Assembly: GCA_026770705.1 (NCBI GenBank)
Contig: JANJGN010000034.1
Span: 6,758,001 to 6,822,000, forward strand
Length of the DNA stretch: 64,000 nucleotides
Direction: 5' to 3'
From: Isurus oxyrinchus
Lineage: Eukaryota
In this document: positions 936 to 61,813 of the stretch, piece after piece
How the letters are laid out: the number at the start of each line of letters is the position of its first letter
How positions within the stretch are numbered: position 1 is the first letter of the stretch
Made by a program: the position numbers and the translations under genes
The notes under the pieces: model-generated
Database searches by the model: none
What the model was told of the DNA's origin: nothing
What the model saw: only the letters and a program-made list of their open reading frames with translations

Positions 936-962
936 ATGATCAGCTAAGTTTTTGTCAGGCTG
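936..962 (+). CDS. Micro-exon 1 (27 nt), (D)DQLSFCQA
   Basis: ttttataccag|ATGATCAGCTAAGTTTTTGTCAGGCTG|gtgttt; weak donor but fits the xxxLxxCxx exon class. Confidence 0.6.
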
Positions 963-1087: not shown

Positions 1088-1114
1088 ATGGTGACTTGGA
1101 TAAAAGATATAAAC
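1088..1114 (+). CDS. Micro-exon 2 (27 nt), DGDLDKRYK
   Basis: gttgttcatag|ATGGTGACTTGGATAAAAGATATAAAC|gtgagt. Confidence 0.8.
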
Positions 1115-4617: not shown

Positions 4618-4644
4618 ATCTCGAGGATCTTGCCGAGAAATTAA
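4618..4644 (+). CDS. Micro-exon 3 (27 nt), (H)LEDLAEKL
   Basis: gactttcag|ATCTCGAGGATCTTGCCGAGAAATTAA|gtaagc; resembles exon 14 (EIEELLENI). Confidence 0.8.
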   Translation: MSRILPRN

Positions 4645-10612: not shown

Positions 10613-10639
10613 TCGCAGCAATGCTGGCAAAAGATAAAG
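10613..10639 (+). CDS. Micro-exon 4 (27 nt), (I)AAMLAKDK
   Basis: tttttttttccag|TCGCAGCAATGCTGGCAAAAGATAAAG|gtaaat. Confidence 0.85.
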
Positions 10640-13219: not shown

Positions 13220-13255
13220 AAATACGCAAATTGAAGAATGCTTTGGAAGACAAAT
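13220..13255 (+). CDS. Micro-exon 5 (36 nt), EIRKLKNALEDK
   Basis: cttcttttccccccag|AAATACGCAAATTGAAGAATGCTTTGGAAGACAAAT|gtgagg; paralog of exon 16. Confidence 0.88.
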
Positions 13256-14268: not shown

Positions 14269-14295
14269 CTAAGGAGCTGAAGGAATGTGAACAAG
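14269..14295 (+). CDS. Micro-exon 7 (27 nt), AKELKECEQ
   Basis: tttctccaattacag|CTAAGGAGCTGAAGGAATGTGAACAAG|gtacct; paralog of exon 22. Confidence 0.85.
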
Positions 14296-15622: not shown

Positions 15623-15658
15623 AACTAAGCAAAACGAGGAATTATCTGAGAGAAACAG
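15623..15658 (+). CDS. Micro-exon 8 (36 nt), ELSKTRNYLRET
   Basis: tttatctttacacag|AACTAAGCAAAACGAGGAATTATCTGAGAGAAACAG|gtgaac. Confidence 0.85.
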
Positions 15659-17807: not shown

Positions 17808-17834
17808 ATGTTAAGTTGAACCAGTGCTTGAAAT
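17808..17834 (+). CDS. Micro-exon 9 (27 nt), DVKLNQCLK
   Basis: tttttttttgcag|ATGTTAAGTTGAACCAGTGCTTGAAAT|gtgagt. Confidence 0.88.
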
Positions 17835-18565: not shown

Positions 18566-18592
18566 CACTGGATGATAAATGCAAAACCGATG
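18566..18592 (+). CDS. Micro-exon 10 (27 nt), SLDDKCKTD
   Basis: tcttcaaatcctcag|CACTGGATGATAAATGCAAAACCGATG|gtacgt. Confidence 0.8.
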
Positions 18593-20017: not shown

Positions 20018-20044
20018 ATCAACGCCTGCTTGACGCAATCGACG
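20018..20044 (+). CDS. Micro-exon 11 (27 nt), DQRLLDAID
   Basis: tctgttcattgtag|ATCAACGCCTGCTTGACGCAATCGACG|gtaagg. Confidence 0.85.
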
Positions 20045-21333: not shown

Positions 21334-21369
21334 AAATTGCAAAGCTGAAAAAAGATCTGAAAGATAAAG
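21334..21369 (+). CDS. Micro-exon 12 (36 nt), EIAKLKKDLKDK
   Basis: ttattatctgcag|AAATTGCAAAGCTGAAAAAAGATCTGAAAGATAAAG|gtaaag. Confidence 0.88.
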
Positions 21370-22635: not shown

Positions 22636-22662
22636 AGATCGAAGAGCTGCTTGAAAACATAG
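22636..22662 (+). CDS. Micro-exon 14 (27 nt), EIEELLENI
   Basis: ctgtttattttgaag|AGATCGAAGAGCTGCTTGAAAACATAG|gtaagc (AAG acceptor). Confidence 0.82.
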   Translation, partial: RSKSCLKT

Positions 22663-25464: not shown

Positions 25465-25491
25465 CAAGCAAATTGTTCGACAAAGAAAAAG
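25465..25491 (+). CDS. Micro-exon 15 (27 nt), ASKLFDKEK
   Basis: tttttatactttgcag|CAAGCAAATTGTTCGACAAAGAAAAAG|gtaacc. Confidence 0.87.
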
Positions 25492-32578: not shown

Positions 32579-32822
32579 AGAGATAAAGACAAAACAAAAC
32601 TGCGGATGCTGGAAATCAAAAACAAAAACAGAATTACCTGGAAAAACTCAGCAGGTCTGGCAGCATCGGCGGAGAAGAAAAGAGTTGACGTTTCGAGTCC
32701 TCATGACCCTTCGACAGAACTGTTCTGTCGAAGGGTCATGAGGACTCGAAACGTCAACTCTTTTCTTCTCCGCCGATGCTGCCAGACCTGCTGAGTTTTT
32801 CCAGGTAATTCTGTTTTTGTTT
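32579..32822. mobile_element. Young palindromic non-autonomous insertion (Penelope-terminus-like) with 13-bp TSD
   Basis: Perfect 101-bp arms 32620-32720 and 32722-32822 around one T; flanked by aagataaaaacac at 32566-32578 and 32823-32835. Confidence 0.85.
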
Positions 32823-34017
32823 AAGATAAAAACACTTCCGGCTTCTGCAGCTGCCCAGGTCACGACAGTCATCCTGGGTCTCCTAAAAAGGAACAGAATG
32901 TCTGCGCGAATGGAGGAAGATGCCTTGAGACGTGCCTATGTATGAAATTATTTACTCCTTAATTAGCTCTTTCTTTCTGCCGATTTCACGTTATTAAAGG
33001 CTTTTGATACAGGCATAGTTAAGGTTTCTCTTTTCCTTTATTTCCATATAACTAAGATTTTAATTTACATGAATATCTGTAAGCCTTTTCGTGGTAATAT
33101 CGCCTTGCTATTTTATTTAAGCATTGTCCCCCATTTCTCTTTAAGTAATTGAACACCGAGTGTCATGGTATGATACACTGAATGTTCAAGTCCTGATTAA
33201 GTTGTATTAAATGCTGACTGGTCAGCTCAGTCACGTGACAAAAGTGTCTGTGACGTCACTTCTCGACGTTCTTTTCTCCTTCCCTTCGAACCAGAATCAT
33301 AACCTATGCGAGATTGATTCCTGTTCCTTCCTTTTGGCCAACTACTCAATGATTATTTGCCGTTGATGTAATTTGCTCTACGATGTTAGATGTGGAATGC
33401 AAACCGAATATTAAACGTTTCCAGTACCAGTTTAAATCTCAGTAATAAAGAAAACCCAAAATAGCCTTTTTTCAAACACCAACATGCTACCTGTAACGTC
33501 AACCTTTGTTTTGTCTGACTGAGCTTTGAAAAGTGCCCTGCTGCTGCTGCTTCCTACACTAGCGACCTCTGTCTCTTGGTATGATGTATATGCCAGTTCT
33601 GCTGCTGCCGCCGATCTGCTTTCATATCTTTATCTCATAAATCAGTTTAAAACATAGCAATCATATCATGTGTTTCATATTTATTACAACCAGAAGTCTT
33701 CATATTTTCTTTTTCTTTTCTTGAGTAGCTATATTTCTACCTTTTCTACTGAAGTGCCAAGGTGTTTCACATTCCCCAGATCAAATGAATTATTGAGATG
33801 TTCCCAGATTCAGTAAAACAGAAATTATTAAACGGCTCATATAATGAATTGACAGTATCACATCAAGCATTTTGTGTACTCACACCTCATATTAACACTT
33901 ATTAAAATTGACATTGCAGAATATTTGGCGTGGGGTCCAGAGATCCACTCGATTTGTGAGGTGAAAGAAAAATTGTAACTTGCTTACTTTTCTTAATAAT
34001 GGATTTTTGCCTTCCAG

Positions 34018-34053
34018 AAATACGAAAATTAAAAGATGATCTGCTTAACAAAG
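34018..34053 (+). CDS. Micro-exon 16 (36 nt), EIRKLKDDLLNK
   Basis: tttttgccttccag|AAATACGAAAATTAAAAGATGATCTGCTTAACAAAG|gtaaga. Confidence 0.9.
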
Positions 34054-35830: not shown

Positions 35831-38800
35831 GTGTCCACTTATCGAATTCCATTTAGAACCAAAACTATTTTGTTAGACCATCAGACCAGGATAGCCAAAT
35901 ACAATGCCCCCCATGGCGCACAGAATGAAGTCAGGAGAAACAGGGAGCTAGTTCTGTAGCAGCACAGTTTTGCCTCTGGGTTGTAGAGATAGCAGAGTTT
36001 ATAAAATGGGTGCATAGGGCCCTGGAGAGCGGTCATATGAATTCGGAGAATTTTATAATTGAGATCTTATGGAACAGGACTTGAGCAGAAGAGTTTCTGG
36101 ATGAAGTGAGTTTGATGTTCTTGAATTTTAGCAGCCGTTGGTGAAGGGAGCGAGTAGATGTACATCTTTAATTAGTGGTAACTGTATTCACGAAGTTAAA
36201 CATTGCAAATATATATCTCCAAACTCTGAAGCCCACCACCAGATTCAACAATTGTCTATTTATATTTGTTCAAGAAATTGCCCAGTGTGAGGCGCAATTT
36301 TAGACAGGTAAACATAACTTACACAATAAACACATTTTCACTTTGATATAAATAAAACATAACGATTATTTTCACAATATTTCAACACGCACTGATAAAG
36401 GAAAGAAAAACCTTTCATGCTCTCAGGAATTAACACAAATGATTCCGCTTGCCTAGGAACCCCAGGCATATATTGGTATACACATCATTTTCACAGAAAA
36501 ATCGCAGACGAAGCACGCATCAATCAATTTCATCTTGGGCATATCCATTCTTTCTAGGTTCGCCGCTGAATGGGAACCTGAATGTTTTCATTTCACTCAT
36601 AGTTTTGTAGAGGTATGCTCTCCCACAAGCAATGGTGATCTGTGCAACATTCAAAGGGCAAACAGTTTCCATTATGTGCCCCGCAAGCAATCCCTGTTAA
36701 AACAAAGCGACTCCAATACTACATGCTTTCACGACAGTTAGGCTTTCTGCAGGTAAAGTGCATTTAGCACCTTTAATATTTCCTGTCCATCCCAAGCTAA
36801 TGGACCGCAGTTCCCGTTTTAACCATTAATAGCAGCTGTGCTGAAATTCCCATAAGGAAGATTGGCATGAGAGGCATCAGGAAAATTTTACTCGTTTCAT
36901 GTGCCTTTTTTTTTGTAAAATAAGGTGGAAACCTAAAGCCTAAATTGTTTTGTTTAAGATTTTCAACGTTAATTTTCTATCAAAATACCCTGGAATCCAT
37001 CGTATTCCCTCAGAGACTTAGTCATTTGAACCAACATATCAAAATTATCACCTGCCTTTCCTGAGTGCATACCGAATTCAAATAGCTAATTTCAATCTTC
37101 GGAAATGTGTGTTTCCCCTTCTTTAGATGTGAATTCACCTTTCTGTGATTGCCAAACACGTCTAACAAGACAGAAGTAACCGTCTCTAAATAAGATTGCT
37201 GATGCAAAATTAGGTGTGAGCTTTAATGGTTAATGACTAAACAAATATATTTGAAAGAACCCGATTCCTACCTTAAAATTTTGATTTGCTCGTTGGAAGT
37301 ATCGATAATACATTCCACAGATCTCTCAGTGCAACCCCAGAGCAAAGGAGGAACTTCTGGAATGCCCGAAACTTTTGATATTGATGGAACTGGAATTTTG
37401 TTGGATTTCCTTGTAGTTGCTCACTGTCTATGTTCAGAAAGACAAATTTCATAGAAAACAAGCATATCCTCGAGGCCAACAACTCAGGTCAACAACACAT
37501 TTGTTTAGTTTGAATAGTTTCTGTTCTGCGTTGCTTAACTTTTAAGGCGTTTTGAAAAGAGAAATGAAAATCTCTATTGTTTTTAACCGTCAAAAATGAC
37601 TTTTTAATGTCAATTCATCTACAAATCCAGAAATATTTTGCGAGTAAGGGACAGGCAAAAGGTACCTCAGAAATCCTTATTCCCACGTGGGAAATTCCAC
37701 TCCGACATTAGTATATATTATAGACGGTTTATGTACGTTTTCTCTCTACCTCAATGCAAGCCAAAGGCAGAAGCGATGCAAGTTTGCAAACAAGAGAGAC
37801 GAAATTGTCTGCACAGCTTGAAAATATTTTTTTTTAATTTAATCATTAATCTGATGATATTAACAATTATCTGCCCTTCTGATGAGAAAGATCAGATTTT
37901 GTTAAACGGAAGCAGTCATTCCCTGATTAAATGGACTGAAGATTCAATGAAATTGAAGTAAAAGAGGATTCTATTTGCAGTTTCGTTTGCTCATCGTTTT
38001 CATGAGTTGCTGAAGAGAGGAAAAGAAAATCAGTACAGGACTCCACTAGTAATGATTATGTAAACTAATCCAGTTTATTTCACATGAAACCAACCTTGAA
38101 TGTGTGGAGGTCAATGAATACGAACCTAAAAAAGAAAAAAATAATTAAATTTCATCCTTCTTGCTAATTGCTTGACCCTCACTACTAAGTGAACCTGAAT
38201 AATACTGGAGGGTATAACTTTAAATTTGTAGAGATCATCTGCTCTTACAGAAGCCTTGGATAATTTTGCTTGCTCTTTAAAGGGAAGTTGTCCATATCAT
38301 TTAAACAAATCTTTCAGGCTAACAATGAAGAGCAGCGGGTTCGGCAGGAATATGAAGTTGAATTTAAAACCAAATCGTCCATGACCTTATTGAATGGTGG
38401 GAAAGCTCGAGGGACCAAGTGTTATACTCCTCCTCTAATTCGTATGAACCTATGTGCCTAATCCAGCAACTTCCCTGATTTTGAGCAGTTTGACCTGACT
38501 GAATTCATACGTAGTTTGCTTAATTTGTTTGGTCTCCGCTACGTCACCTCATAAGTAGATACCTAAGGCCAACCTCGCTTATATGCAGCCAAAAGGTTAT
38601 GTTAGCTTAATATGCTATACGGGATTTTCCTGTTGTGCTCTGGTAAATGTGCAGTAGCTCATCATTATCAACCTCAGTTTTCCTGCAATCGACAGCTCCA
38701 CAAGGCAAATCTCAATCAGAGAAACTTCAGTCTCAAACTCAGCATCTAGTTCATCATTTGCATCATTATTATGTAAATATTATATAATTTGAACGACGCC

Positions 38801-42350: not shown

Positions 42351-43348
42351 TTGAATATTAAACTGAAGTCACCTCAGAGATAACCCGTGATCTGAATACA
42401 GGATTTTTGAGAGTGATAGGGCATTTAAGTTGTCTGTTTTCTTTTTAACATATGATATCAAAATTAAGGCTTTTCGCTCTACTTCGTAGCAGTCCTATAT
42501 GAGCTGGAATTTCCAGGGTTATGGTCTCACTTCGGGAATGAATGGGCACACAAGCTACATTAACGAGCCGGTTCAGCATTTTGTGATAAACATGCAAAAT
42601 GATTGGAATATTTTAACCTATTCTCCAAGGGGACGAATTTGTGTGAAGATAAGTTAAAGAAGTCCGTGTGCACGACTCTTTTGTTACATGACAGCGATAT
42701 TAGGTTAAGATCATATTTGTAACTGTTTCCATTGTTGATTTGTGTTCTGCTAGCATCATCCTACTGAAAATATCTGGAGGGCTTAGGGAGTGATTCTGAG
42801 GGAGCACTAAGTCTAGGGTGACCTGGACATTTCTGTCAGAGATATTTGATGAGAAAATCTTTAAACTAAAAAAGGTGAGAATACTTATTGCCAACAGCAT
42901 TTTGGGGTCACAGCCTAACGCAAGCAGATATAATTCACATACACATCAGCATGGATCGAATTGAATAGTGGAACAGGCCTCGGGAACCCAATGTCTTCCT
43001 CCAATTCCTGTATTCTTTTCTTCTAAAACTGAGGTTTTTTTGTTCTCATTCGATCATAAATTAGGATGGAGGAGTGCAAACACAATTAATATAATGAGTG
43101 GATGTAACAGAAGGTTTGAAATAAATTCATTCAACAGGGTACTATCACCTGGACTGCTAAGTTAAAAAATTATAATTACATTCCGAGTAATATGTGGCAT
43201 ATTGATTTAACCAGAGTGGAAAAAAAGTAAACTTTTGGAATTATGTGAAAATTAATGAGTCATCATAATTTGCAATTTCTGGGATTAACACAATTAGCTT
43301 AATTTTGCTTAATTATGTTTGGTAATAATAATTATTGTATCCTTATAG

Positions 43349-43375
43349 CAAAAGCTTTGGCTGAAAAGGATGATG
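43349..43375 (+). CDS. Micro-exon 17 (27 nt), AKALAEKDD
   Basis: ttgtatccttatag|CAAAAGCTTTGGCTGAAAAGGATGATG|gtaagt. Confidence 0.88.
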
Positions 43376-46390: not shown

Positions 46391-48187
46391 TTGCACTGTA
46401 ATTACAGTACACCGAGTACCCATTATAAGATAAGGTGCTTCTGAAAATCCTTCCACCATCAGAGACATGTTGTAATTTTAGTTATTTTGAGTTAACGTTA
46501 TTAAAAATCTCGAGTGCTTATTTTGTAGCCAGGGCAATTTTAAGGCTGCCATCCATCGCAGTCCGTTATTAACATGTACATAGGACAGCAATTTCCAGAG
46601 GCCACAGGTAAAATAATAAAAGTGTAAATAAGAACCGACTCTTGGAGATGCCCTGAAGCCCGAGAAGCTGCGGGATCATGTTATCTCATCAAAGGAACTA
46701 CGGTTGGAACATTTGGAATGAAGATAATAAGATGTAATTCTCTGTTACACGTTCTAAGATTGTTAAAAATATTAGATCTGATTGATTCCAGCGTTAGAAT
46801 CTGTTACCTTTGTGATAATGCTTGATTACTGCACGCATAAAGAAGCACCCATTCTATAACTGGGTTTTACATAGCGCTACAATTTTTTCATCTATTTTTT
46901 TCATCTCAATCATCCCTTCATTAACATTTGCCTTTTGAGTTCACACATGGAATGGATTCGAAATTAAGCACATGAATTGCCAGTCCCTGATTTGGAATCA
47001 TTGCGACACATGAATAATGCAAACTAGGTTTCCCAAACCGCAACCACCCCCCCAGCCCCACCCCCACCAACTCCCACTCTCCACTCCGTCCCTCTGTTTT
47101 CGTACCTTGCAGGACATTCTGCCCTCTACGATTCTGGTCCTGAAAGGGATAGAAATGCATTGCAGTGAAGACCAGCACTGTACATTTACTGAAACTGGTA
47201 AGGGAATATCAGCGTTTTGAAAGGCAGTATCAAAAAAACCTAAATGCTGAAAGACAAATAAAGGGAAACTAACGTAGAAGATGTTGCTTAAAAGAGGACA
47301 CAGTTTCATGCCAACATAATTCATATTAGTTAAACTATGGTGATATTACTAAAATTGACCACGAATCTGGATCAGTGAATAAGTGTTCGACTTAACCCTT
47401 TTGCCAGACAGTGTTTTAAGAAACAACAACTGACGTAGAATGTTGGTTTGTTTTTGTTTTGTCCTGCCACGTTACATTGTGTCGACTATGGAAACTATAA
47501 GGCCGAGTTGCTGTCTGCCTGTGTTTCTAATGCACGCTTGACTCCTCCATCCTGAATTCATCCAACATTATCTGCAGAACGTTTTCTTACTTTCTCACGT
47601 CAGTGTTTATGTACCTTATGCACCAAAACTACACCTTTGTTAACCTGTATCCTTTTAAACTCTGTCTGAATTATTCCGTTTTTTTCAATATTTCCTTCTC
47701 ATTCATGCAATATTATCATATGTCTATGAAGCACAATATAGTTCTTTCCCGATGAGTGGAACACCCACAATTGCACTTTATAAACGTAATCGTATGGCCT
47801 TTGAGCAGATAACCTCATTTTTCTCATTATTATTATTAGTATTACCATTATTATTACAAGTTATTATTCGCAATAATGACACCCAGAATCTTCAAACTTT
47901 CCAGACCGATTAGATATGTCACCTCTAATGCAGCCCTATTAAAAGTATGCAATCTAATTTAACATTTCGCTTTTTTCCTAGTCCTTTAAAAAGTTTATCT
48001 CTAATAAGGAGACTGTGCAACCTCAAAATGGCAAGCAAGACGTCAGCGTGTTAACTGTGCCATTCAACTGTTTATTTGTCACTAAGCAATGTAAATCAAT
48101 CTCGAATTGCCGAATTCATTACGTTCTCTGTACCAGCTGCCCCCATGGTTCCAAGATGCTTTCTGATCAGCTCTTTATTGTTTACAG

Positions 48188-48223
48188 AACTAGCTAAATT
48201 GGTCGAAAATGTGGAAGACTTAG
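48188..48223 (+). CDS. Micro-exon 18 (36 nt), ELAKLVENVEDL
   Basis: ctttattgtttacag|AACTAGCTAAATTGGTCGAAAATGTGGAAGACTTAG|gtgaga. Confidence 0.88.
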
Positions 48224-48329
48224 GTGAGACAATGTCGACAAACATTTGACATATGATTTCCAATTACCAGAGTTGATGTTAATACTGACAAAAAGCCAGC
48301 GCGCTGAACTAGTATGCAAGGAGATGAAA

Positions 48330-49350
48330 ACATAGCAGCATAGGAACAGGAGTAGTTTGGGAGTCTCCTCGAGCCGCTGCGCCATTCAAGTGGATCATGG
48401 TTGATCTTCCATCTCAGCACAATCTTCCCGCACTGCCCCAACATCCCTTCATTGTTGCCTTCATTTCTGGAAACGGATCTACATCAACTTTCAACATACT
48501 CAACGAGAATTCAAAAGATTCAGCACCCTTTGACTGAAGAAGTCCCTCCGTAACATGGTCCAAAATGGCCTACCTCTTATTCGGAGACTGTATCTCCTTT
48601 TCTAGCCTACCCCCCACTTTTCGACTAAAGGAAAACCGGGGAAATATCCTTCCTGCAGCTTGTCTGTGGAGCCCTGTGAAAATTTTAAATGGTCCAATGC
48701 GGTCACGTATCATTTTCAAAACTCAAGAGTAGGCAAGCCCAGTCTCCTGATAATACTACTTGCCAGCAACTAGTCAGCTGCCTTCCGAATTGCTTGTTGT
48801 AACTGCATATTACCTTTCAGTGATTTATTAAGATGAAACCAAGCTCCCTTTGGGGATTAACATTTCTTAATCTCTCCCCATTTCTGTTCTACCTACCAAC
48901 GTGGATACATCAAATGTCTCCATGTTATGTTCCATCTGCCATGCACCTGCCCACTCACGTGGCCGACTTCAATCGCCTTAAAGCCTTTTTGTATCACCCT
49001 CACAACTCATATCCCCACCAGGTTTTGTGTCATCAGCAAACTTGGAAACATTACACTTGGCCGTCAGGTCCATTTAATTGCCATATACTTTGGTAACCTT
49101 CAGCACACCTTTAGTTGGAGACTGCCGACCTGAGATATATCCATTCTCTTTGCTTTATGACCGCTAACCAATCCTGAATCGAAGGCAGCTTATTATCCCC
49201 AATCTCGCATCCTCCAGTTTTACTTAATAACCTCTTGAGTGGTTCATTACCTCCTTAGCAAAAATACAAATGCAACTCCTTCATTGGTTATCCTTTATCT
49301 ATCCAGGTAGTAACATTGTTAATAACTCCAACACGGTTGCCGCATCTGAT
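48330..49350 (-). mobile_element. Degenerate CR1-type LINE with 3' UTR
   Basis: Begins cataggaacaggagtag...gccattcaagtggatcatggttgatc (reverse 3' UTR); tttgtgtcatcagcaaactt is the reverse of KFADDTK. Confidence 0.85.
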
Positions 49351-49562
49351 TTATAAATTCCTGTTGAGTCTGCACAAATCTAGCTTTATTTTCTAAGTTC
49401 CCAAAATCTGAGCTGTGAAAGGCATTCATCGTCTAATCTATTTTTTTAAGTTATGTGAGTCGATGAGGGCTACCTTCGGATATTCTAACTTGTGTGCAAC
49501 ATATATTTTGTAGATTTATGCCATACCTCAAACACTCTTTTTTGCATGTTTTCTTTTGTCAG

Positions 49563-49589
49563 AACGACAACTCAGGAAGTGTGTGAGAG
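49563..49589 (+). CDS. Micro-exon 19 (27 nt), ERQLRKCVR
   Basis: ttttcttttgtcag|AACGACAACTCAGGAAGTGTGTGAGAG|gtaaac. Confidence 0.87.
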
Positions 49590-50352
49590 GTAAACGCGCA
49601 TGACAGTATTAGTGTAGACAGGGGAGTGTTTATAGCTCCAAGAGACAAAAAATCTCTTTGTAAGCCGTTAAGAGTTTGCCTCACAGAAATAGCAAGCATC
49701 ATCCCCGTGCTCCCCTCCCGAGCTTGACTTATTTGATGTCAACAACACACAGTTACAATTATTGTCTTTATTCCTTTTATTTAGATTCCCCCATGTTCCG
49801 TGGGCCCGTAAAACACAGTAGGATCATTCTTAATATCAAGCATTAGGTGGGGGGCCAGGGAGGTTGAATTATGAGGCTATTTTAACAGGGAAAGTCCTCC
49901 CATTTAGCCAACGTGGGACCAGGCTCTGCTGGAAAGAAACTTATCTGCAAAAGTGTTTCCTCCTGGTGGAGAAAAGCCTAGGAAGGGCAATTAAACCTTC
50001 TGGATTACAGAAAGGGTGCACACCCATTGGGCCGCTAAAGCTCAACCGGTTCTAATTTCTCGTTCTCTTTCGGAATTGGACTATTTAATTAGCAAATATT
50101 TCTCTTTGCAAATACCACTGCGATCCTACCGTCTTATTTCATCATTGGGCTCCTGTCAGCATATCAACAAAATCATACACCTCTATCTTATTATCTCCTC
50201 CTCTAAGACACACCTTAAAACATAACCTATTTCACAAAAGTGCTTATTTTCTTATATCTGTCCTCATGTACCCTTGTCTGTCTCCTTATAAAGTTTAAAA
50301 AAAGCACCCCATCCTTGTTCGATTTTCCTAATGCCATCACTTCTTTTGCTAG

Positions 50353-50379
50353 AGAGTGGAGGCCCAGATAGAAGTAATG
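50353..50379 (+). CDS. Micro-exon 20 (27 nt), ESGGPDRSN
   Basis: cttcttttgctag|AGAGTGGAGGCCCAGATAGAAGTAATG|gtgagtaga; same 3' junction as exon 23. Confidence 0.87.
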
Positions 50380-51145
50380 GTGAGTAGAATAGACAACGCT
50401 GTGCATTAAGAAAAGTGGCCTAGCCAGATATGAAAATGATGAAAATACCTTATTGAGCATGTAAAGTTTTCATTGAAGCCTAAGAACAAACCTAAAGTGC
50501 GCCCTTTGCTTTCCCATGCATCAGATGCGTCGAGATTCCTCAACCACTTAAATTATTTGATTTGAATTAATTGGTAAATGAAGCAATACTTATATGAGAA
50601 CATTATCTTTCTGTCAGCGAGTGTTTAAGGTCCAGATGAACTGCTTGAGAGAATGTGTAGAGGCACTTTCAGTCCAGGCGTTCAAAGGGAATGAAACTGT
50701 TTATCTGAAATTGAATAATGTGCAGGGTCATGGGGAGGAAGATAGGAATGGGGAGAAAGCCGGGGAATGTCTCTAGTTGAATTCCTCATTTAGAGACCGG
50801 GTGCAGATATGATGGGCTGAATACACTATTTCGGCCATGCAGTCATTTTGATTCCCTATGATAATTATTTTGCTTTCAAAACCTCTGCTCCTAGAAATGA
50901 GCCTCGGAAACTGGTTTGGTTTGGACTGCCATGATTAAACGTTTTGTCATTTGTGTATTGGCACACCGAGCTCCAGTTTGCCCTTCACATTTTTAGGCAT
51001 ACATTTTGTCAATAGCGTGTTGCGTCATTATCCTCCATAACAAATTTTTCGAGCTACCATCATTACCATCTGCTGTGGGTCAGCTGATATTCTGAAACCC
51101 CTTAACTGAAGAAAGTTTCTGCCAGAACGACATGTATTGTCATAT

Positions 51146-51221
51146 CAAAAACAGAATTACCTGGAAAAACTCAGCAGGTCTGGCAGCATCTGCGGAGAAG
51201 AAAAGAGTTGACGTTTCGAGT
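51146..51221. mobile_element. Single-arm copy of the young palindromic element
   Basis: 76 bp nearly identical to 32623-32698 (one mismatch seen). Confidence 0.85.
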
Positions 51222-51307
51222 GGCATGGCAGAGTTGTTAACACATTTTAAACCTACAGGACGTTAAGAACAGTGCCAATGAAAAGAGGATATTGCCTAAG
51301 GAATAGT

Positions 51308-52310
51308 ATGGGTCAGTGCTGGGGCCACAATTTTTCACTTTATACATTAATGTTCTAGATGAAGGAATTGAGGGCATCCTGGCTACGTTTGCAGATGATA
51401 CAAACATAGGTGGAGGGACAGGTAATATTGAGGAGGCGGCAAGGCTGCAGAAGGATTTGGACAGGTTAGGAGAATGGGCAAAGATTTGGCAGATGGAATA
51501 CAACGTGGGGAAGTGTGAGGTCATGCACTTTGGTAGGAAGTATAGAGACATAGACTACTTTGTAAATGGGGGCAGAATTCAGAAATATGTTGTGCAAAGG
51601 GACTTGGGAGACGCAATCCAGGATTCTCTTAAGGTTAACCTGCAGGCTGAGTCGGTAGTTAGGAAGGCAAATACAATTTTGACATTTATTTCGAGAGGAC
51701 AAGAATATAAAAGTAGGGCTGTGCTTCTGGAGCTTTACAAGGCTCTGGTCAGACCACATTTAGAATACTGTGAGCAATTTTGGGCTCCGTATCTCAGGAA
51801 GCTTGTGCAGGCCCTGCGGAGGGTCCAGAGGAGGTTCACGAGAACGATCCCAGGAATGAAAGGCTTAACATATCAGGCATGTTTGAAGACTTTGGGTCTA
51901 TACTCGCAAGAATTTAGAAGGATGAGCGGGTAACTGATTGAAACTTACAGAATACTCAAAGGCCTGGATAGACTGGATGTGGGGAAGATATTTCCATTAG
52001 TATGAGAGACTAGGACCCGAGGGCACAGCCACAGCATAAAGGTAAGACCTTTTAGAACACAGATGGAGAAAATTCTTAAGCCAGAGGGTGGTGGATCTAT
52101 GGAATTCATTGCAACAGAAGACTGTCGAGGCCAGGTCATTGATTGTAATTGTGATCGAGGTAGATAGGTTCTTGATGGGTAAGGGGATCAAATGTTATGT
52201 AGAGAAGGCGGGAGATTGCGGTTGAGAAACTTATCAGCCATGATTGAATGCTGGAGCAGGCTCGATGGGCCGAATGGCCTAATTTATGCTCCTATGTCTT
52301 ATGGTCTTAT
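51308..52310 (+). mobile_element. 5'-truncated, relatively young CR1 LINE with open RT C-terminal frame (51316..51933) and 3' UTR
   Basis: SVLGP..F.LYIN, FADDT, LQKDLDRLGEWA..WQMEYNVGKCEVMHFGR and LYKALVRPHLEYC.QFW.PY motifs; tail cctatgtcttatggtcttat; possible TSD gaatagt at 51301-51307 and 52311-52317. Confidence 0.95.
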
Positions 52311-53941
52311 GAATAGTTTACATAGAATACTTGTAAACGTTTGTTTTTTTTTAAATTATGATTGCCCAGAGGTTCATTTTTAATATGGTTTGTTAGGATT
52401 GCTACTGCTATTTTTGATGTGTATCAATTGCCTGATCTTGAATATGAATTTTTCTAGAGTTTTAAATTACATTATCTAAATGCCAGAGATACCAGTTTCT
52501 TTGGCAGCAGAAGCAGATAATGTAATATTTTACACAGAAGTGATATCAGATAATATTCCCTGCATGGCAAGATCTTACATTCCGGAATGCTCTGTCCATA
52601 ATTAAAACTGTTAAGTTTGGAGACCTTGCGACTCTCTGATTTGATGCAGATAATGAGGAAAATTATATCAATTACTAGTAAAATGGGCCCAATAGTGTAA
52701 CGTGATACTTAACATAGAGACGTCAAAAGGGGTTTTTTTTTTAGGAATGACAATAGCAAAACAAGTGTTAAGGAGCAACTAGGAACGATTCTGCATGAGC
52801 CACATTAAGTTGAATTGGGAAAAGGTGACATATTACCGTAAGGTAAAAAGTGTCCCCAATCATTGGCTCTATTAATGTTGGAACGTTTCTTAAAATAAAT
52901 AAAAATTGAACGCTAGCATATAAGTCACAGGGGTTTGCATGTGCATATTTGTCCTCTGGAAAGATGCTTTGCACAATATGAAATGGCCTCCGAATGAATA
53001 CAGCATAGATTTATTGTGTTCCAGGACAACACAAATGGGGGTCATCAGGGATGGTGTTCTGGGGGTGGTGGTGGTGGCAGAGGTTCACCAAAGATGAAGT
53101 GGGGAACCACCCCATCGCCACCCAACAACCCCCATCGCCACCCCAACCCAGAAATTCGCAGGCAGGAATTGCTATTCAATGGCCAGGCAAGAGAAATCTT
53201 CACATGGCAATTACCCTGCGATGGGGAGCATCTGAAATTGAGAATTAAATGGTACACTTCGGATCATTCAGATTGTATTACATCAAGTGTTTCCCAGAGA
53301 ACTTTGAATAATTAAAACCATGTCCACCTTCTTGGGAACATCCTGCTGACAGGAATAGAAATCAACCTCACTCTTGTTCATACTCCACTTCCATTTCCAT
53401 TTTACTTGCTCAGATAAATCATTGTTTTAGGCGATGGGTACACTTAATATTTTAGATTGTTATATTTGACGGAATATCGAAAACAAAAAAAATGATCCTC
53501 CACAATACGGAGTGAGTGCTACACCATCGGAGGTACATTAATTTCAGCGAGAGATATAGAAAGGTAGAGAGATAAATCAGACAGGAATGGATGTTTCATA
53601 TAGATGAATGTAGAGGGTAGTAATCGAAACTGGTAAATGAAAATGAACACAGATACTGTTGTGTTATTGAGAATGCCTTTAAGTCTAAAATGTAATTTTG
53701 CATTTTATTTGTTTTTTGTGAACGAAGCTGTGACATGTCAAACAATGCTTTCACAAGATCAATTAGCTGAACTGTCACTAATTTCAAATGTTCGAGCAAG
53801 CAGTCCGTTGATTGATATCAGAAAGCTGGTTGTGCCAATGGTCTTGACAACGAGAAAGTAAACAGTGACACATGTTATCACACTTTCCGCGTTTGTTGAA
53901 CACTGTCGGGTTGATGGGAATCATTGTTGTTTTCTATCCAG

Positions 53942-53977
53942 AGATAGCGAAGCTGAAGGAAGATCTGAATGATACAG
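53942..53977 (+). CDS. Micro-exon 21 (36 nt), EIAKLKEDLNDT
   Basis: gtttttctatccag|AGATAGCGAAGCTGAAGGAAGATCTGAATGATACAG|gtgcaa; weak donor but clear paralog of exons 12 and 24. Confidence 0.85.
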
Positions 53978-54602
53978 GTGCAAATACGAATTGACATCAC
54001 TGCTTACGCGCTGATAGACTTCTGATGGAAGGCTGCAAATTTACAACCGCTAAGCCTTTGAAAGCATTTAAGTAAATGCCTACATTAATTTCAGTTACAT
54101 TGTAATTCCTAGTAACAATTTCAAAACGATGGGTCTCAATTTAACTTAAACATTTCATCCAAGGTTTCTGTTCAGCGTTTTCAGCGCTGCAGTGTTTATA
54201 TTGGAGTGAATAACATCATGATTCAGACAGTCTATAAAACCTCTGTAGTGTAAGTTATATTACATATATATACTTCTGCGGTATTTTTCGATTAGTTATT
54301 AATTGCTAATCATTTTTTTTATTGTAAATTGACAATGCTGGTAAAAATCTTACAATGTCTAAACAACAGATGTTGATTACCATTTAATATGAATCTTTAA
54401 ATATTAACAAACTCAACAGCTGATGTAATCAGTAAGACAACTGCGTTAAATATTAATTATAAATGCCGTACAAATGAATATCATTAATTTGCTAATCCTC
54501 AAGTAATTCGAATTATCATTAATAACCTGCTGATCCGCTGATGCTACGATAAATAACACAATTTAACATTCTTTAGTATTAATAATCAACTTTATTACGT
54601 AG

Positions 54603-54629
54603 AATCCAAGCTGAGAAAGTGTGAGCAAG
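54603..54629 (+). CDS. Micro-exon 22 (27 nt), ESKLRKCEQ
   Basis: ctttattacgtag|AATCCAAGCTGAGAAAGTGTGAGCAAG|gtacat. Confidence 0.85.
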
Positions 54630-54757
54630 GTACATAGGGTACATTGTTGTGATTTCAATAACAGCATCCTTCTAGTAATCCTTTTCTGTAAGACGTTTTC
54701 TTTACATTATAAAAATTGTATATAGATTATCAGTTAATTGCGTTTTTATAATCTTAG

Positions 54758-54784
54758 AGCTGAAAGGTCGACCTGATGAAAATG
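54758..54784 (+). CDS. Micro-exon 23 (27 nt), ELKGRPDEN
   Basis: tttttataatcttag|AGCTGAAAGGTCGACCTGATGAAAATG|gtgagtaga. Confidence 0.87.
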
Positions 54785-55299
54785 GTGAGTAGATAAGATC
54801 GGAAGTGAATTATATGCTAAGTGGAAACTGGCACGCAAACTTTCAATTTACTGTAATGGATTTGATCATCTCCCAAAAGGTAACAGCTTAAGGGGCAGGC
54901 AATCCGACTGACCTCTGCTGTACCTTCGGAGTATGTTCTGTTCCAAAGATTATACGCATATATTTGATAATGGACACACGGATTCAGGAAGGATTAGAGA
55001 GTCATGAAGAGAGAGAAAGAGAGGGGGAGTCGTGGTGAGGTGTAGAGAGAGAGAAATTTGTGATTAATACAAATCAATGCTGAAATTATCCATAACAAGG
55101 AATGGCACATTGTGCGCAAATTCTTCAGCCATGAATGAAAAAATAAAACAATTGATTTAATGTATTCAAATTGCAATATTTTTTTCGCCTTTTGCTCTGT
55201 CTTGCAACCATTCAGATTGTTGGGCCCTCGGGAAGCATGTTATGTTTCCATCTATCAAAGACTGAATTGCCACAGAGAGTGCCAAATGCTTTTATTGTT

Positions 55300-56870
55300 A
55301 TTTGTTTTCGTGGAACATAGCCAGAATTTATAGTCCATCTTTAGTTGCCCTTCAAAAAGTGGTGGTGAGCGGTCTTCTTGATCTGCGGCAGCTAATGTGC
55401 TGAAGGTCCAACTACCATCTTGTTAGGGAGGGGTACTAGGATTCTAACCCAGCAACAGTGAAGGAACGGCGCCATACTTCCACATAAGAATGCTGAGTGA
55501 CATAGCGGGAAAATTGCAAGTGTGGTGTTACCATCCATCAACTCTCCTTGTCCTTCTAGATTATAGTAATGGTCGGTTTGGAAGGTGCTGTCTCAGGAGA
55601 CTTGGCAAATTCCTGGAGCACTCTTTTAGATGGTAAACAATGCTGCTACAGTGTGTGGGTCATCGTTGGTGTGAGTGCTTGTGAATGTGGTGCCAAACAA
55701 GTCGGCTGCTTTCACCTGGATGGTGTCAAGCTTCTTGAGTGCTGTGGGAGCTGCACTCATCCAGAGTTATGGAGCATATTCCATCAGATTCCTTACTTGT
55801 GCCTTGTATATAGCGGGAAAGCAATGAGCAGTTAGAAGGTGCGTTACTAGCCAAAGGATTGCTACCCTGTTACCCGCTGTTGCAGCCAGAATATTTATAT
55901 GGCCAACCCAGTTCTGTTTCAGGTCAATGGTAACAGCAAGGATGTTGATAATGCGGGATTCAGCGATAGTAAATTCATTGAATATCACGGGACGATAATT
56001 AGATTATCTCTTGTTGGGGAAGGTTATCCCCTTGCACTTGTGTGGGCCGAATGTTCACTGTTATTTGTCACCCAAAGCCTGGCCATTGTTGAGGTCTTGC
56101 TGCCAGTGGACATGGACTGCTCCAGCATTTGAATAGTCGCAAATGGTGCTGACCACTTTGCAATTATCAATGGACATCTCCACTGCTTACCTTATGATGG
56201 AAGGAAAGTTATTGATGAAGCAACTGACGGTTGTTGGGACGAGAACACTACCCTGAGGAACTATTTCACCGATGTCCTGTAGCTGAGTTGCCTGACCTCC
56301 AGCATCCACAGCAATCTCCCTTTGTGATATATGTGAGTCCAGCCAGGGGACAGTTTTCCCCCAATTCCCATTGATCCCAGTCTTGGTACTGGCCCTCGAT
56401 GTCACACTCGGTCATTTGCAGACTTGATGTCCAGAACAGTCACTTTCACTTCACAACAGAAGTTCAGCACTATTGTCCATGCTTCAACAAAGGCTGTGAT
56501 GAGGTGAGGAGCTTAGTGGCCCTGGCATAACACAAACTGTACGTCAGTGAGGCAGTTATTGCTAAGCAAGTGCCACTTGTTTGCACTATTGATGATCGCT
56601 TCCATTACTTAACCAACGATTGAGAATAGACTGATGGTGCTCTAATTGGCTCGGTTGGATTTGTTCTGGTTTTGGGTACATGACGTGCCAGGGCAATTTC
56701 CCACATGGGCAGGTAGATACCAGTGTTGCAGCTCCAATGGAATAGGTTGGCTAGGCGTATGGCAAGTTTTAGATTGCAAGTCGTGAGTACTATTGCCAGA
56801 AAACTGTGAGGACCAATAGTGTTTGCAGTATCCATGGTCTTCAGCCATGTCTTCATGGCACGTGATGACC
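55300..56870 (-). mobile_element. Degenerate LINE (second family) RT and 3' end
   Basis: Minus ORFs contain VPQGSVLVPT..SCFINN.PSII, IYKAQVRNLMEYAP and TGIYLPMWEIA. Confidence 0.9.
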
Positions 56871-56969
56871 ATTCTAAGAAACGCACATCAATATAAAGCC
56901 ACTTATCACACTGACAATGCTTTTAATCAGGTAATCGGCTTATTTATGCAACTTTGATCTCTATTACAG

Positions 56970-57005
56970 AGGTAGCACGGTTGAAAGAGGATCTTCAAGA
57001 CACAG
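56970..57005 (+). CDS. Micro-exon 24 (36 nt), EVARLKEDLQDT
   Basis: atctctattacag|AGGTAGCACGGTTGAAAGAGGATCTTCAAGACACAG|gtatga. Confidence 0.9.
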
Positions 57006-57072
57006 GTATGAATGCTTGCCGGTGATTCACACCCAGTTCTACACGATTATACCACAACAAAAAACCTTATGG

Positions 57073-57440
57073 TTCTTCTTCTTCTTCTTCTTCTTCTTCT
57101 TCTTCTTCTTCTTCTTCTTCTTCTTCTTCTTCTTCTTCTTCTTCTTCTTCTTCTTCATATTCTTCTTCTTCTTCTTCATATTCTTCTTCTCTTCCTTCTC
57201 CTTCTTCTTCTTCTCCTGCTTCTTCTTCCTTTTCTTCTTCTTTTTCCCTTTTCTCCCCCTTCTCCTCCTAATCGCCTCCCACTTATTCCTCTTCTTATCC
57301 TTCCTCTCCTCTTTCTTCTTCTTTGTCTTCTTCCCCTTCTTCTGTTTCGTCTTCTCTTCCTCCTTCTCCTTCCACCCCCTTCGTTTTCTTATTCTTCTTA
57401 TGCTAATACTTTTCCTTCTCCTTGTTCTTCTTCTCACGTT
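57073..57440. repeat. (TTC)28 perfect repeat (57073-57156) followed by a degenerate polypyrimidine tract
   Basis: Seen directly; explains the poly-L, poly-F and poly-K ORFs. Confidence 0.95.
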
Positions 57441-57843
57441 CATTCAGATCGTCGCAATGCTTTGTGTTTTTCACTTCGCCATCTCCTTTTATCTACTGTG
57501 CCTTCCAATCTCAATGCGTTTACGTGTCCCAAAAATATATCTTTCTCTCTGGCATTATTCCTCCCTCATCTCACTTCTGTCCCTGGCAGACGCATCTTCA
57601 TCAATCGTCCTACCTCATTCACCCTCTCTCTCATTAGTTGATGATATAAAACTTGATATGTTTTCTGGGTAGTTTCTTGAATTTCTCACAATCATCACTG
57701 ACATGTTGATGTGCTGGTCCCTGATAATATTATTTAGTGTCATTTCGCACATTAAACCCGGGGTCTTCATGATATTCAAATCCCCTCTTTGTTTCTTCAT
57801 TTTTTAAATGTTGCCCATCTTTATGCAAGTTATAACAAGTCTC

Positions 57844-58011
57844 AGAATTACCTGGAAAAACTCAGCAGGTCTGGCAGCATCGGCGGAGAAGAAAAGAGTT
57901 TTCTTCTCCGCCGATGCTGCCAGACCTGCTGAGTTTTTCCAGGTAATTCTGTTTTTGTTTTGGATTTCCAGCATCCGCAGTTTTCTTTGTTTTTATTTTT
58001 TTTCTTTGTTT
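57844..58011. mobile_element. Young palindromic insertion (same family as 32.7 kb) with 14-bp TSD
   Basis: 53-bp perfect arms 57843-57895 and 57899-57951 plus a T-rich tail; flanked by ttataacaagtctc at 57830-57843 and 58012-58025. Confidence 0.88.
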
Positions 58012-58284
58012 TTATAACAAGTCTCGTTCCACATCCTTCTCGCTGATCAACCATTCAGTTCCGGCAATTATTTTCAAAAAACACTTCACTATTATGATTC
58101 ATTATTTTTCATTTCCTTTCATCCATCTTCTGCCAGCAATGACCCCAGGAGCTCTACTCAGCACCCTGTCTCCAAATATTCACTTAAAATATTTACTCTG
58201 CCACATAAATCTAAGCTAACAAATCGATACACTTGCTATATGTTTTTTACTAGTGATGTCAGTGGCAGATGAGAAAATTTTATT

Positions 58285-61200
58285 TTTCTTTATTCAATGG
58301 TCGGATGTGGGTGTTACTGTCCAGGCCAGGTTGTATTGCCCATTCATAATTGCCCTTGATAATGTGCCGATGACCTGCCTTCTTGAAGCATTGTGGTGTA
58401 GTTGCACCGATAATGCTGTTAGAGAGGGTGTTCCAGGATTTGAACAAAAGGACAGTGAAGGAACTGCCCTTCTAAGCCAAAATGGTTGTAAGCTTGGAGA
58501 GGGTCTTCCAGATGAGGACATGACCAGGTTTCTGCTGGCCTGTTCCTTCTACATGGTAACGCGCATGCATTTGCAAGATGCTGCCTCAGGAGGCTTGGAG
58601 AGCTAATGCAATGCATCGTGCAGGTTGTATCGACATCTGATCCTGTAATTCGATAGTGGAGGAAGTGATTTTTGAGCAGGGGGTGTTAATCAAGGGGACT
58701 TTTTTATCCTGGGTGGTGTCAATCTGCTTGGACTTTGCTGGAAATGTGGTCATCCAGGCAAGTGGAGTGTTTGGTATCACACGCATGAAATGTGCCATTT
58801 AGATGTTCGACAAACTTTGGAGAGTCAAGAGTTGAGTTGTTCGCCGCAGGATTCTTAAATCTGATCTCTTCTTGTAGCCATATGGCTAGTCCAGCTCAGT
58901 ATGTGGGCAATGGTAACCTCCCAGTAAGTTCATAGTTGCTGTTTAAGGCTGGTAATTCGAATGAATGAATGGCAGTGGTTAGGTTCTCTATTGTTGGAGA
59001 TGATGACTGCCTGGCATTTGATCAGCGTGAATGTTACTTGCACTTACCAGTGCACGATTGGGAATTGTCCAACCCCTGTTGCATTTGTACAAGGATGAAA
59101 CCATTTTCTAAGCAGTCAGGAAAGTTGCTGAATACTGTGCAAAAAGCAGCGAACATCCCAATACCTGAACCTATGATGGACGGCAGGTCATTGGTGAAGT
59201 AGCTGAAGCTGCTTGAGACTTGGAAATAAACTGAAGTAACTCAACTAGTGTTGTCTGGAACTGCAGGGTTGACTTCGAACAAACACAACCAACACGCGAT
59301 GTATGGCTCCAACAAGTGGAGAGTTTCCCATTTTTCCCCTGGACTCCAGTTCTGCTTGGACCCCTTGATGCAACATTCGGTAAAAAAAAAAAGCTGCCTT
59401 GATCCCAAAGGCAGTCGCGCTCACATCATATCTGAAGTTTGGCTTCTGTTCGTTTTTTCTTGTTCACCAAGCCTGTAAGCAAGGCAGAATCTGTGTAGGT
59501 CTGGCGAAACCAGGACTGAGCGCCAGTCGTGAATTTATTGCAAAGCAAGCTCTTTTTGATGCATCTTTGTTGGCCTCTGATGTGTGTGATATGAAACTCT
59601 CCACTTGCCTGGATGACCACATTTCCAAGAAAATCCCAGCAGATTAACACCACCCAGGATAAAACAATCCGCTTGATTAACACCCCCTGCTCAAACATTC
59701 ACTTCCTCCACTATTGAATCACAGCAGCTGATGTCGCTACAACCTACACGAAGCATTGCAGTAACTCACCAAGCCTCCTGAGGCAGCACCTCAGGGGAAG
59801 AAATTGGCAGGTTTGGAATTCTGCTGCTTTTTGCCTACAGAACAAACCTGAGCAATGTTGCACATTTCCGGGTGGATGCCAGTGTTACAGCTGTTCCGAA
59901 AAGCTTGGCTAGGAGCAGTGAAAGTTCTGAAGTGCAGATCTTCAATTATATTTCTGGTATATTGTCAGGGACCATGGCCTTTTGCAGTTTCCAGTGCATT
60001 CAGCCATTTCTGGACATTACTTGGATTGAATCGAACTGGCTTTGCTGCTTGGAACCAAAGGAGGTAGCCGAGATTTGCCGGCCATCCAACACACCTGAAA
60101 GAAGATTGTTGTAAAGGTTTCAACGTTAAATTCACAGTGACGCATTGTGCTCACCAATCATGCAGGAGGAAAGCATTTGTGAAGCCTCCTGCTTCAGTGA
60201 GTTGCTTAGATTTACTTATCCTTCACGATTGGATGTCGCAGGACTATTGAGCTTAGATTGCATCAGTCACCTATGGAATCCCGGTAGTTTGTCAGTTGTT
60301 GCTTTGCACAAAATTTGTCCTGTGCTACCACTTCACCAGGTTCATACCTAATACTTGGGGATGCCTGATTCTTCTCCTGGCATACTGTCCTGAACTCTTC
60401 ATTGGGCTAGGGTTGAGACCCTGTCTTGTTGGTCATGGCAGAATGTCCAAAATGCCCTTTCGTTAGGTGACAGATTGTGGTGCTGCTGAGGGCCCAAAGC
60501 ACCTCATGTTTTCCCCGTCTTCACTTGCTACATATCTTCGTAATATACACATTTTGCAGCGTGCAAGTGCCAAACAGCACATTGGTGGGGATCCTCAATG
60601 TGAACCTGGGACTTATTGGAACCCACAAGAGCAGTGTGGTCGCCACTCCTGCATGGACAAGTTCATCTATTACATGCAGGTTGACAAGGATGAGTCCAAG
60701 TAAGTATCTAATTTCTATGGCTGGTACGCTCATCAAATGTGAAAGACCGAGTCCAGCAGTTATGCCAGCTCGGTTTGAAGTGGTGGCATTGAAGTCCCAA
60801 GGTACATTCATGCACTTACCAACATTAGTGTTTCCTCCAAAACTGGTGGCAAACATGGGGGAGTACTCATTCATCAGCTCAGGGGATCGGTAAATGATAA
60901 TCAGAATGCGGTTTTCTTGCCTGTGTTTGACCTGATGCCGTGAGAAATTCAGGCATATCCGGCTCACTCCCGATTGCGTCGCACAATGCCACAATCTCTG
61001 CTGGGTCCGCACTGGGCCAAGACATACCAAAGGATGTTGATGGTGCCAGGGGCATTACCTGAGTGGAAAGTAGCTTGGCGAGCCTGAAAAATTCTAAATG
61101 ATGCTGTTGGTTGACAAATCGCCTGGGTCGACATGGCTGAGTTTGCCATTGTTGTTTCCGGTGTTAATGTCAGTGCCAGGCCGTTTGTCTGGTTTTATTG

Positions 61201-61440
61201 TTCTTAGGCGTTTTACCGGATTGATGCACCTGAATGGATTGCAATCGATTTCATAGTGTAGTCAGGACTGAAGCACATTGCTTGGGTCTGAGGTCAGATG
61301 TAGGCCAGTTCAGATTTTCCAGATTTCTTTTGAACTAAAATTTCACCAAATGACTGTGGTGGGATTCGTAACTAGGAAACCAGACCATTAACCTGGGTCT
61401 TTTGTTTATCAGTCCAATTACTTCTATGCCTCTGCCAACC
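58285..61440 (-). mobile_element. Degenerate near-full-length LINE (second family) with tRNA-SINE-like 5' end and an internal inverted segment
   Basis: Endonuclease-like remnants (ILIIIYRSP, DFN, LLGLILVNL.V in ORF 60521..61030); colinear with the other copies; SINE-like head at 61230-61440. Confidence 0.75.
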
Positions 61441-61786
61441 GCAGCTGTTGACAAGATTACTTATGATTTTGTCATTATTATCCAGTGAATGATTTAAATT
61501 GACTTCATAATATCAGTTAGCGTGCATCATCATGGATCAATAATGAGTTGATCGACACTTGTCATCGTATATAAAACAGAGGGGATGCACCTAATTAAAT
61601 ACTTATTAATTATTATTATCACATGCTATTAACTTTCGCTATTATGCATTAATTAATATTTAGTTCTGTGCCAAGTAATTATCTCAGCAGCGTTTAAGTA
61701 CTGCATTCATAAATATTCCATGGAGAGGTAGGTGCACCTATCCATTGCCAAGCATTCAACATTAAATATTTGCAATTATTATTTAG

Positions 61787-61813
61787 AAAACGATCTTTGG
61801 AAGTGCCAGGAAG
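61787..61813 (+). CDS. Micro-exon 25 (27 nt), ENDLWKCQE
   Basis: attattatttag|AAAACGATCTTTGGAAGTGCCAGGAAG|gtaaga. Confidence 0.86.

Follow-up and report, generated by a model that had tools for sequence, protein, structure and literature searches.

What gene do the very short exons belong to that recur along a 64-kb stretch of the genome of the shark Isurus oxyrinchus? The stretch analysed (64,000 nucleotides (nt), here called the window) is C34:6,758,001-6,822,000, where C34 denotes contig JANJGN010000034.1 of the 4.98 Gb genome. A first-pass annotation had described eight micro-exons at window positions 48,188-61,813 as a three-exon repeat of 30 residues, in which a three-heptad helix with a core cysteine is followed by a Gly/Pro linker. 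We find that these eight exons do not form a self-contained three-exon repeat but belong to the middle of a gene of about 1 Mb, here called gene B, of which they make up a small part. The gene ends in an exon encoding a SPRY/B30.2 domain.

All eight exons lie where they had been placed, have AG and GT at their ends and are open in phase 1, with lengths in order of 36/27/27, 36/27/27 and 36/27 nt. The three-exon unit is thus present; however, it occurs only twice and is not general. A splice-site scan of the whole window called 23 exons of the same type at the working threshold, so the array extends well beyond the region first described, see Table 1. A DNA profile was trained on exons from outside the window; as these had been picked by a profile to which window exons had contributed, independence is incomplete and the test mildly circular. 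The profile sets the exons apart from chance: all seven 36-nt window exons score 25-39, whereas the minus strand reaches at most 2.7, and among the 16 27-nt exons 9 exceed the minus-strand best of 14.2. The first-described 27-nt exons at 50,353, 54,758 and 61,787 score under this control line.

The array runs on through the 160 kb before the window and the 200 kb after it, and is present in every further block of gene B examined. Over 683 kb of the gene, 165 micro-exons were called on the plus strand and 10 on the minus strand. Gene B consists of symmetric phase-1 micro-exons of 21, 27 and 36 nt over ~1.04 Mb; it begins with exons of 21 nt, one heptad apiece, in the 5' part at C34:6.459-6.529 Mb, and these are followed by exons of 36 and 27 nt. 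The net exon density is between 0.23 (strict) and 0.30 (profile) per kb. About two thirds of the gene have been read, and extrapolation from the density gives ~240-310 exons over 1.04 Mb, i.e., at ~10 residues per exon, a product of ~2,400-3,200 residues if all exons are used. Multi-exon blocks are repeated several times inside the gene, at C34:7.014-7.132 Mb and 7.329-7.441 Mb.

The terminal exon was located by reading the DNA directly and not by a SPRY family search. Gene A, a tandem copy lying upstream, has as its last exon a phase-1 exon at C34:6,395,819 that matches Pfam SPRY (E 1.8e-13), and gene B ends in the corresponding exon. Among solved structures the best match of the B30.2 exon is the B30.2 domain of BTN3A1 (E 3.7e-20), with TRIM58 and TRIM21 also among the matches. 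The BTN3A1 alignment spans residues 3-167, although neither the gene A exon nor any of 11 related proteins (the clade described below) has a Pfam PRY match, which points to a diverged PRY. Further B30.2 copies are found on C34 at 4.817 Mb (plus strand, 58%) and at 3.474 Mb and 2.709 Mb (both minus strand, 44%); the contig holds five such genes, A to E. Between 6.396 and 7.496 Mb no B30.2 besides that of gene B was found (150 of 456 candidates scored), and a profile search of the genome for SPRY gave no match adjoining the window (150 of 308 candidates scored). A pattern made for the 36-nt exon has nine matches genome-wide, six of them on C34, and three in the control; the two minus-strand B30.2 copies each have a match upstream on their own strand, at distances of 33 kb and 56 kb. 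No C-type lectin head was found, as the array ends in the SPRY exon in both gene A and gene B, and the likeness to the CD23 stalk repeats that had been proposed is not supported, the C-terminal domain being SPRY/B30.2. Gene A exons were traced upstream to C34:4,881,641, a point at which the first exon had not been reached (12 kb of 4.818-4.878 Mb seen).

The heptad reading of the repeat can be judged from an exon catalogue of 424 kb, with 40 adjacent 36+27 nt pairs and 72 27-nt exons. The core had been placed at residues 2, 5, 9, 12, 16 and 19 of each 21-residue unit. This is so in the three units first described and also gene-wide, more weakly at 12 and 19: the hydrophobic fractions at these six residues are 0.88/0.88/0.93/0.55/0.93/0.42, compared with at most 0.23 elsewhere, and the a-d-a-d-a-d register is maintained throughout the 40 pairs. 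Leu16 and Cys19, which had been taken as invariant, are so in the three units but not in the gene, where they are found in 35 and 16 of the 40 pairs, respectively, and residue 19 is Lys in 19 pairs. Cys is instead found at residue 5 in 18 pairs; one pair has both cysteines and seven have neither. The residue-19 form predominates in the window and in the array upstream of it, whereas downstream most units have the residue-5 form. Residues 5 and 19 are both d positions, and a d-position Cys is present in 33 of the 40 21-mers. In the whole catalogue 46 of 54 cysteines lie at residue 5 of a 36-nt exon or residue 7 of a 27-nt exon, in agreement with the proposed coiled-coil register with Cys at d.

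The hinges fare differently. Pro occurs in only 4 of the 72 27-nt exons, two of which are the first-described linkers, so the Gly/Pro hinge is a local feature. Linker-class exons elsewhere in the array have no Pro, and much of the array is an alternation of 36 and 27 nt in which the three-heptad register runs uninterrupted. Short segments joined by Gly/Pro hinges are not supported as the rule. A third linker exon had also been predicted downstream of 61,813; its donor, A[AC]TG/GT[AG]AG, is not found in the 18 kb from 61,814 to 80,000, where the first exon called lies at 73,142 (window numbering).

The comparison with gene A shows what is conserved. An alignment with gene A covered 24 exons of gene B, which correspond to 18 distinct A exons; 23 of the 24 have retained AG, 23 have retained GT, and none has an indel or a stop. 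Identity by codon position is 91/87/84%, compared with 83% in the flanking intron, and 16 of the 18 A exons keep both splice sites (P 3e-4 under intron divergence). The constraint is clear on splicing and frame and modest on residues. Exon turnover can be seen as well, in the lost acceptor of the gene A copy of the exon at 54,758 and in re-duplicated blocks of gene B.

The nearest named database proteins of the B30.2 exon come from sharks, rays and one chimaera. In a midpoint-rooted tree of 40 rows (36 of 166 proteins and four genes, with gene D left out), their B30.2 domains and those of genes A, B, C and E form a single, chondrichthyan-only clade of 15 rows (100/100), apart from the TRIM- and Ig-bearing rows (Ig, immunoglobulin). 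With a chimaera among its members, the clade must be older than the split between sharks and chimaeras. Members are XP_069797409 from Narcine, XP_055510696 from Leucoraja, XP_038668997 and XP_038672306 from Scyliorhinus, XP_042191566 from Callorhinchus and GCC29436 from Chiloscyllium. In the databases they are annotated as TRIM39/58/69-like, A33-like or BTN3A1-like and are unstudied. These names imply RING or Ig parts; however, all 11 members scanned have SPRY alone, with no match to RING, B-box or Ig. Most have a coiled-coil-type N-terminal part attached to the B30.2 domain. The models share the 9- and 12-residue units with gene B, and in three of them a Trp-bearing 9-residue unit stands directly before B30.2; they differ in having a total length of 175-460 residues, against the estimated 240-310 exons of gene B. 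Seven of ten isoform comparisons of these relatives (database models) contain internal in-frame gaps of 6, 7, 9 or 18 residues, which is what skipping of symmetric micro-exons would give. The models P0004, P0040, P0154, P0156 and P0160 start with residues that resemble a splice acceptor translated in frame, which suggests that they are 5'-incomplete. Longer relatives were sought by shared words, a weak search, and none was found. Literature searches, supplements excluded, found no paper on this gene family; one 'A33-like' entry in the accessible part of a shark skin proteome (PMC10707392) could not be tied to the clade.

Elsewhere in the genome, a very large SPRY cluster at C21:82-118 Mb contributes the bulk of the 150 scored SPRY matches. 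Two B30.2 exons within it, located at 89.7 and 91.3 Mb, come nearer to the micro-exon B30.2 family (38% and 35%), and the 36-nt pattern has a match at 89.9 Mb.

We suggest, with a probability of roughly 0.55, that the product of gene B is a RING-less, cytosolic protein consisting of a coiled-coil rod and a B30.2 domain, the length of which is set by exon skipping. The window exons would then be spliced to the B30.2 exon in one frame. Since every exon is a multiple of three and of the same phase, any subset of exons keeps the frame, and exon skipping, together with exon birth and decay, would therefore set the length of the rod. Joined in one frame, the exons would encode chains of up to ~2,400-3,200 residues that associate, parallel and in register, into a coiled-coil oligomer. 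The rise of a coiled coil is 0.15 nm per residue, and a rod using all exons would thus be ~350-470 nm long, with the B30.2 heads at one end. The rod would oligomerise and space the heads, and the heads would bind a target, either in innate recognition or as a scaffold, in the cytosol, much as a RING-less TRIM protein or a membrane-free BG/butyrophilin tail might act. Avidity and reach would be set by rod length, and the length varied by skipping. The d-position Cys would be a small core residue that is able to cross-link the chains on oxidation.

Several points weigh against this proposal. The joining of the window exons to the B30.2 exon is inferred, from about two thirds of gene B; four sequence runs (two putative-RNA, two DNA-like) compared with window 47,900-57,050 contained no exon-boundary joint among the 15 of 106 joints displayed, the RNA contigs lay on repeats, and the result has no weight either way. 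The giant length is seen only as DNA of this genome, because the database relatives are so short. The constraint on amino acids is modest, 87-91% against 83%. Gene B is without ~241 kb of gene A near its 5' end (A 4,850,373-5,091,193; cf. 6,455,835), and owing to this gap and to relic-like exons in the window it may be partly decaying. The missing part includes the 5' block of 27/36-nt exons of gene A, which is why gene B starts with 21-nt exons. Cys makes up 4.5% of the residues, regularly at d, which is unusual for a cytosolic rod. The cytosolic location itself rests on absence, because the first coding exon of gene B was not found, and two of eight clade models, P0154 and P0040, begin with a hydrophobic 8-mer (3.5 and 3.3), which we read as intron translated into the model. 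Finally, a B30.2 target and an immune role are transferred from other B30.2 families and may not apply here.

The proposal could be taken further. Combinatorial skipping of frame-neutral exons of 7, 9 and 12 residues may create a repertoire of length-variable, Cys-cross-linkable rods of up to ~0.4 micrometre that carry B30.2 with no Ig, RING or membrane part, from a gene whose exon number is near or past that of titin, which has 363. Gene A would then span at least 1.5 Mb, and the cluster would be a shark tandem family of megabase genes. We put this combination forward as a tentative idea that has the odds against it.

Would the heads rather face the outside of the cell? The same gene could encode a secreted or type II membrane-bound protein, i.e., a disulfide-linked coiled-coil stalk with extracellular B30.2 heads, similar to a collectin or a CD23-type receptor. 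Secreted B30.2 proteins exist, regular Cys at d suits an oxidising compartment, and the two hydrophobic starts and the failure to find the first coding exon leave room for an outside location. A d-position Cys can make an interchain disulfide in a parallel dimer; however, the example found, in the parts of the source available, is the bZIP of chicken CREB3, which is an intracellular zipper (PMC6423718). The model P0088 has a predicted type II layout, with a membrane segment, a repeated coiled coil and a C-terminal PRY-SPRY, but it falls outside the clade. The 5' end of gene B should lie in C34:6.422-6.459 Mb, because 6.4213 Mb matches the gene's own 3' flank and 6.436-6.456 Mb matches the 5' side of gene A. 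This interval was read whole, and the 5' region of gene B yielded neither a signal exon nor a membrane exon. Of 17 candidates running from ATG to a donor in C34:6.396-6.459 Mb one is signal-like, and this exon, at C34:6,421,428, was rejected since its DNA is not that of the gene A start but corresponds (88%) to sequence at 7,510,544, in the gene B 3' flank. There is no enrichment of N-glycosylation sequons (5 vs 2.9 +/- 1.6, P 0.16). Six of the eight clade models have no strongly hydrophobic start, and all eight are without a membrane-length hydrophobic stretch (maximum 19-mer hydropathy 1.48, against 2.61 and 3.26 in two membrane-type controls). We hold an extracellular stalk to be less likely than the cytosolic rod, although it is the most probable of the alternatives.

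Gene B could also be a decaying duplicate of gene A, with window exons that are untranslated or with only a short subset near the B30.2 exon in use. The 241-kb gap, the relic-like exons and the short database relatives all fit such a history. However, open exons with intact sites are dense along the gene, and exon blocks that were re-duplicated inside it remain open. In addition, its B30.2 exon is open and shares 92% of its protein sequence with that of gene A, against a DNA identity of 77-83% in most aligned blocks. We consider this reading unlikely.

It is very improbable that the gene encodes a true receptor of the butyrophilin/BG type, with IgV, a membrane segment, heptad micro-exons for the cytoplasmic part and B30.2, the tail of which would be extremely long: the 21-nt heptad exons at the 5' end do fit the BG design as far as it is set out in the text available (PMC5938342), and BTN3A1 is the best solved match, but no BTN-type IgV or IgC was found on C34 between 2.01 and 13.07 Mb (113/113 and 110/110 candidates scored; a highly diverged Ig in unread DNA could escape this search) and thus near any of the five genes, such exons cluster at C21:95-114 Mb, no Ig F-strand, RING or B-box motif was found in the 5' DNA of gene B or in gene A at 4.890-4.994 Mb, and the B30.2 domain belongs to a clade separate from the IgV-bearing and TRIM rows.

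The cytosolic rod with B30.2 heads that we favour shares parts of its design with several known systems. In chicken BG the coiled coil comes from a long series of split-codon micro-exons, each heptad taking 21 nt, with alternative splicing; there are also exons for the signal, IgV and membrane parts, and the heptads number 27-38, while those of BTN are few, according to the portion of the source consulted (PMC5938342). Gene B likewise has heptad-coding split-codon micro-exons; however, they are mostly of 27/36 nt and about ten times more numerous, a B30.2 exon is present, and no Ig or membrane exon was found. Butyrophilins have heptad repeats followed by B30.2 in the partial text at hand (PMC12841164), and gene B shares with BTN3A1 and BTN2A1 the order of heptads and terminal B30.2, in contrast to which it has no IgV/IgC nearby, a B30.2 domain in a separate clade and many more heptads than the few of BTN. 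TRIM/RBCC-B30.2 ligases also combine a coiled coil with a PRY-SPRY, but no RING or B-box was found in the scanned 5' DNA or in the clade models; the coiled coils of TRIM proteins are short and antiparallel. CD23 has a 21-residue three-heptad repeat beneath a C-terminal head, and this is what gene B has in common with CD23 and DC-SIGN. Here, however, the head is SPRY and not a C-type lectin, the repeat is split into 36+27 nt and no membrane anchor was found. In the Schistosoma micro-exon genes (MEG), as far as the excerpted source describes them, short exons, mostly multiples of three and separated by long introns, are varied by splicing; such a gene has 10-20 exons, and its product carries a signal peptide and does not exceed 189 residues (PMC10526429). 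Gene B also has the bulk of its coding sequence in symmetric micro-exons, a likeness of design and not of family membership, while MEG are of far smaller scale and have the signal peptide.

The gene family has apparently been missed or shortened by annotation, as only its last 175-460 residues are in the databases, under TRIM, A33 or butyrophilin names. If its exons are expressed together, gene B is among the most exon-rich vertebrate genes. It offers a testable case of micro-exon duplication and skipping setting the length of a coiled-coil rod, and it bears on the origin of the module of heptad micro-exons and B30.2 in butyrophilins and BG. If the proposal is true, this would be a vertebrate micro-exon gene system that tunes the reach and spacing of a recognition domain.

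Table 1. Micro-exons called in the window, and the gene that contains them. Positions are in window numbering unless C34 is given.
Feature	Position	Strand	Basis or remark
36-nt phase-1 exon, unit 1, core residues 2, 5, 9, 12	48188..48223	+	splice scan, profile
27-nt phase-1 exon, Leu4/Cys7 class	49563..49589	+	splice scan, profile
27-nt phase-1 exon, Gly/Pro linker	50353..50379	+	splice scan; weak on profile
36-nt exon, unit 2	53942..53977	+	profile; open with AG/GT in paralogue A too
27-nt Leu4/Cys7 exon	54603..54629	+	profile; retained in paralogue A
27-nt linker-class exon	54758..54784	+	acceptor AG gone in paralogue A copy
36-nt exon, unit 3	56970..57005	+	splice scan, profile
27-nt Leu4/Cys7 exon, unit 3	61787..61813	+	linker exon after 61813 not found
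27-nt exon candidate, Leu4/Cys7 class	936..962	+	splice sites weak
27-nt exon, same array	1088..1114	+	splice scan, profile
27-nt exon candidate	4618..4644	+	acceptor weak
27-nt exon; 21-nt form via inner acceptor 10619 scores equally	10613..10639	+	profile
36-nt exon	13220..13255	+	splice scan, profile
27-nt Leu4/Cys7 exon	14269..14295	+	splice scan, profile
36-nt exon	15623..15658	+	splice scan, profile
27-nt Leu4/Cys7 exon	17808..17834	+	splice scan, profile
27-nt linker-class exon without Gly/Pro	18566..18592	+	splice scan
27-nt exon	20018..20044	+	splice scan, profile
36-nt exon	21334..21369	+	splice scan, 36-nt pattern, profile
27-nt exon	22636..22662	+	splice scan
27-nt exon	25465..25491	+	splice scan, profile
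36-nt exon	34018..34053	+	splice scan, profile
27-nt exon	43349..43375	+	splice scan, profile
Gene B, contains the whole window	C34 ~6.459-7.497 Mb	+	micro-exon array to terminal B30.2 exon
Gene B terminal phase-1 SPRY/B30.2 exon, 173 residues, no Cys	C34:7,496,442-7,496,962	+	92% identical to gene A exon

Amid the intact exons, the window contains exon-like relics at 6,125-6,165, 36,274-36,306, 37,631-37,661, 42,377-42,400 and 42,839-42,873. Their defects are a length of 33 nt with an in-frame stop, a length of 31 or 35 nt, or the loss of the donor; they are possibly dead micro-exons or homopolymer errors. High-copy repeats are found at 32,590-32,825 (an inverted pair), 51,150-52,300 and 57,840-57,990. 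A 27-nt call at 51,395 sits in such a repeat and was rejected, and the fragment at 51.3-52.3 kb is presumably retrotransposon-like. Directly 3' of the exon at 56,970, a long TTC microsatellite degrades to a pyrimidine-rich tract (57,070-57,420). Just outside the gene cluster, at C34:1.13-2.01 Mb, there are four V-type Ig exons, two on each strand, that all score the same and as far as seen are unrelated to the arrays.

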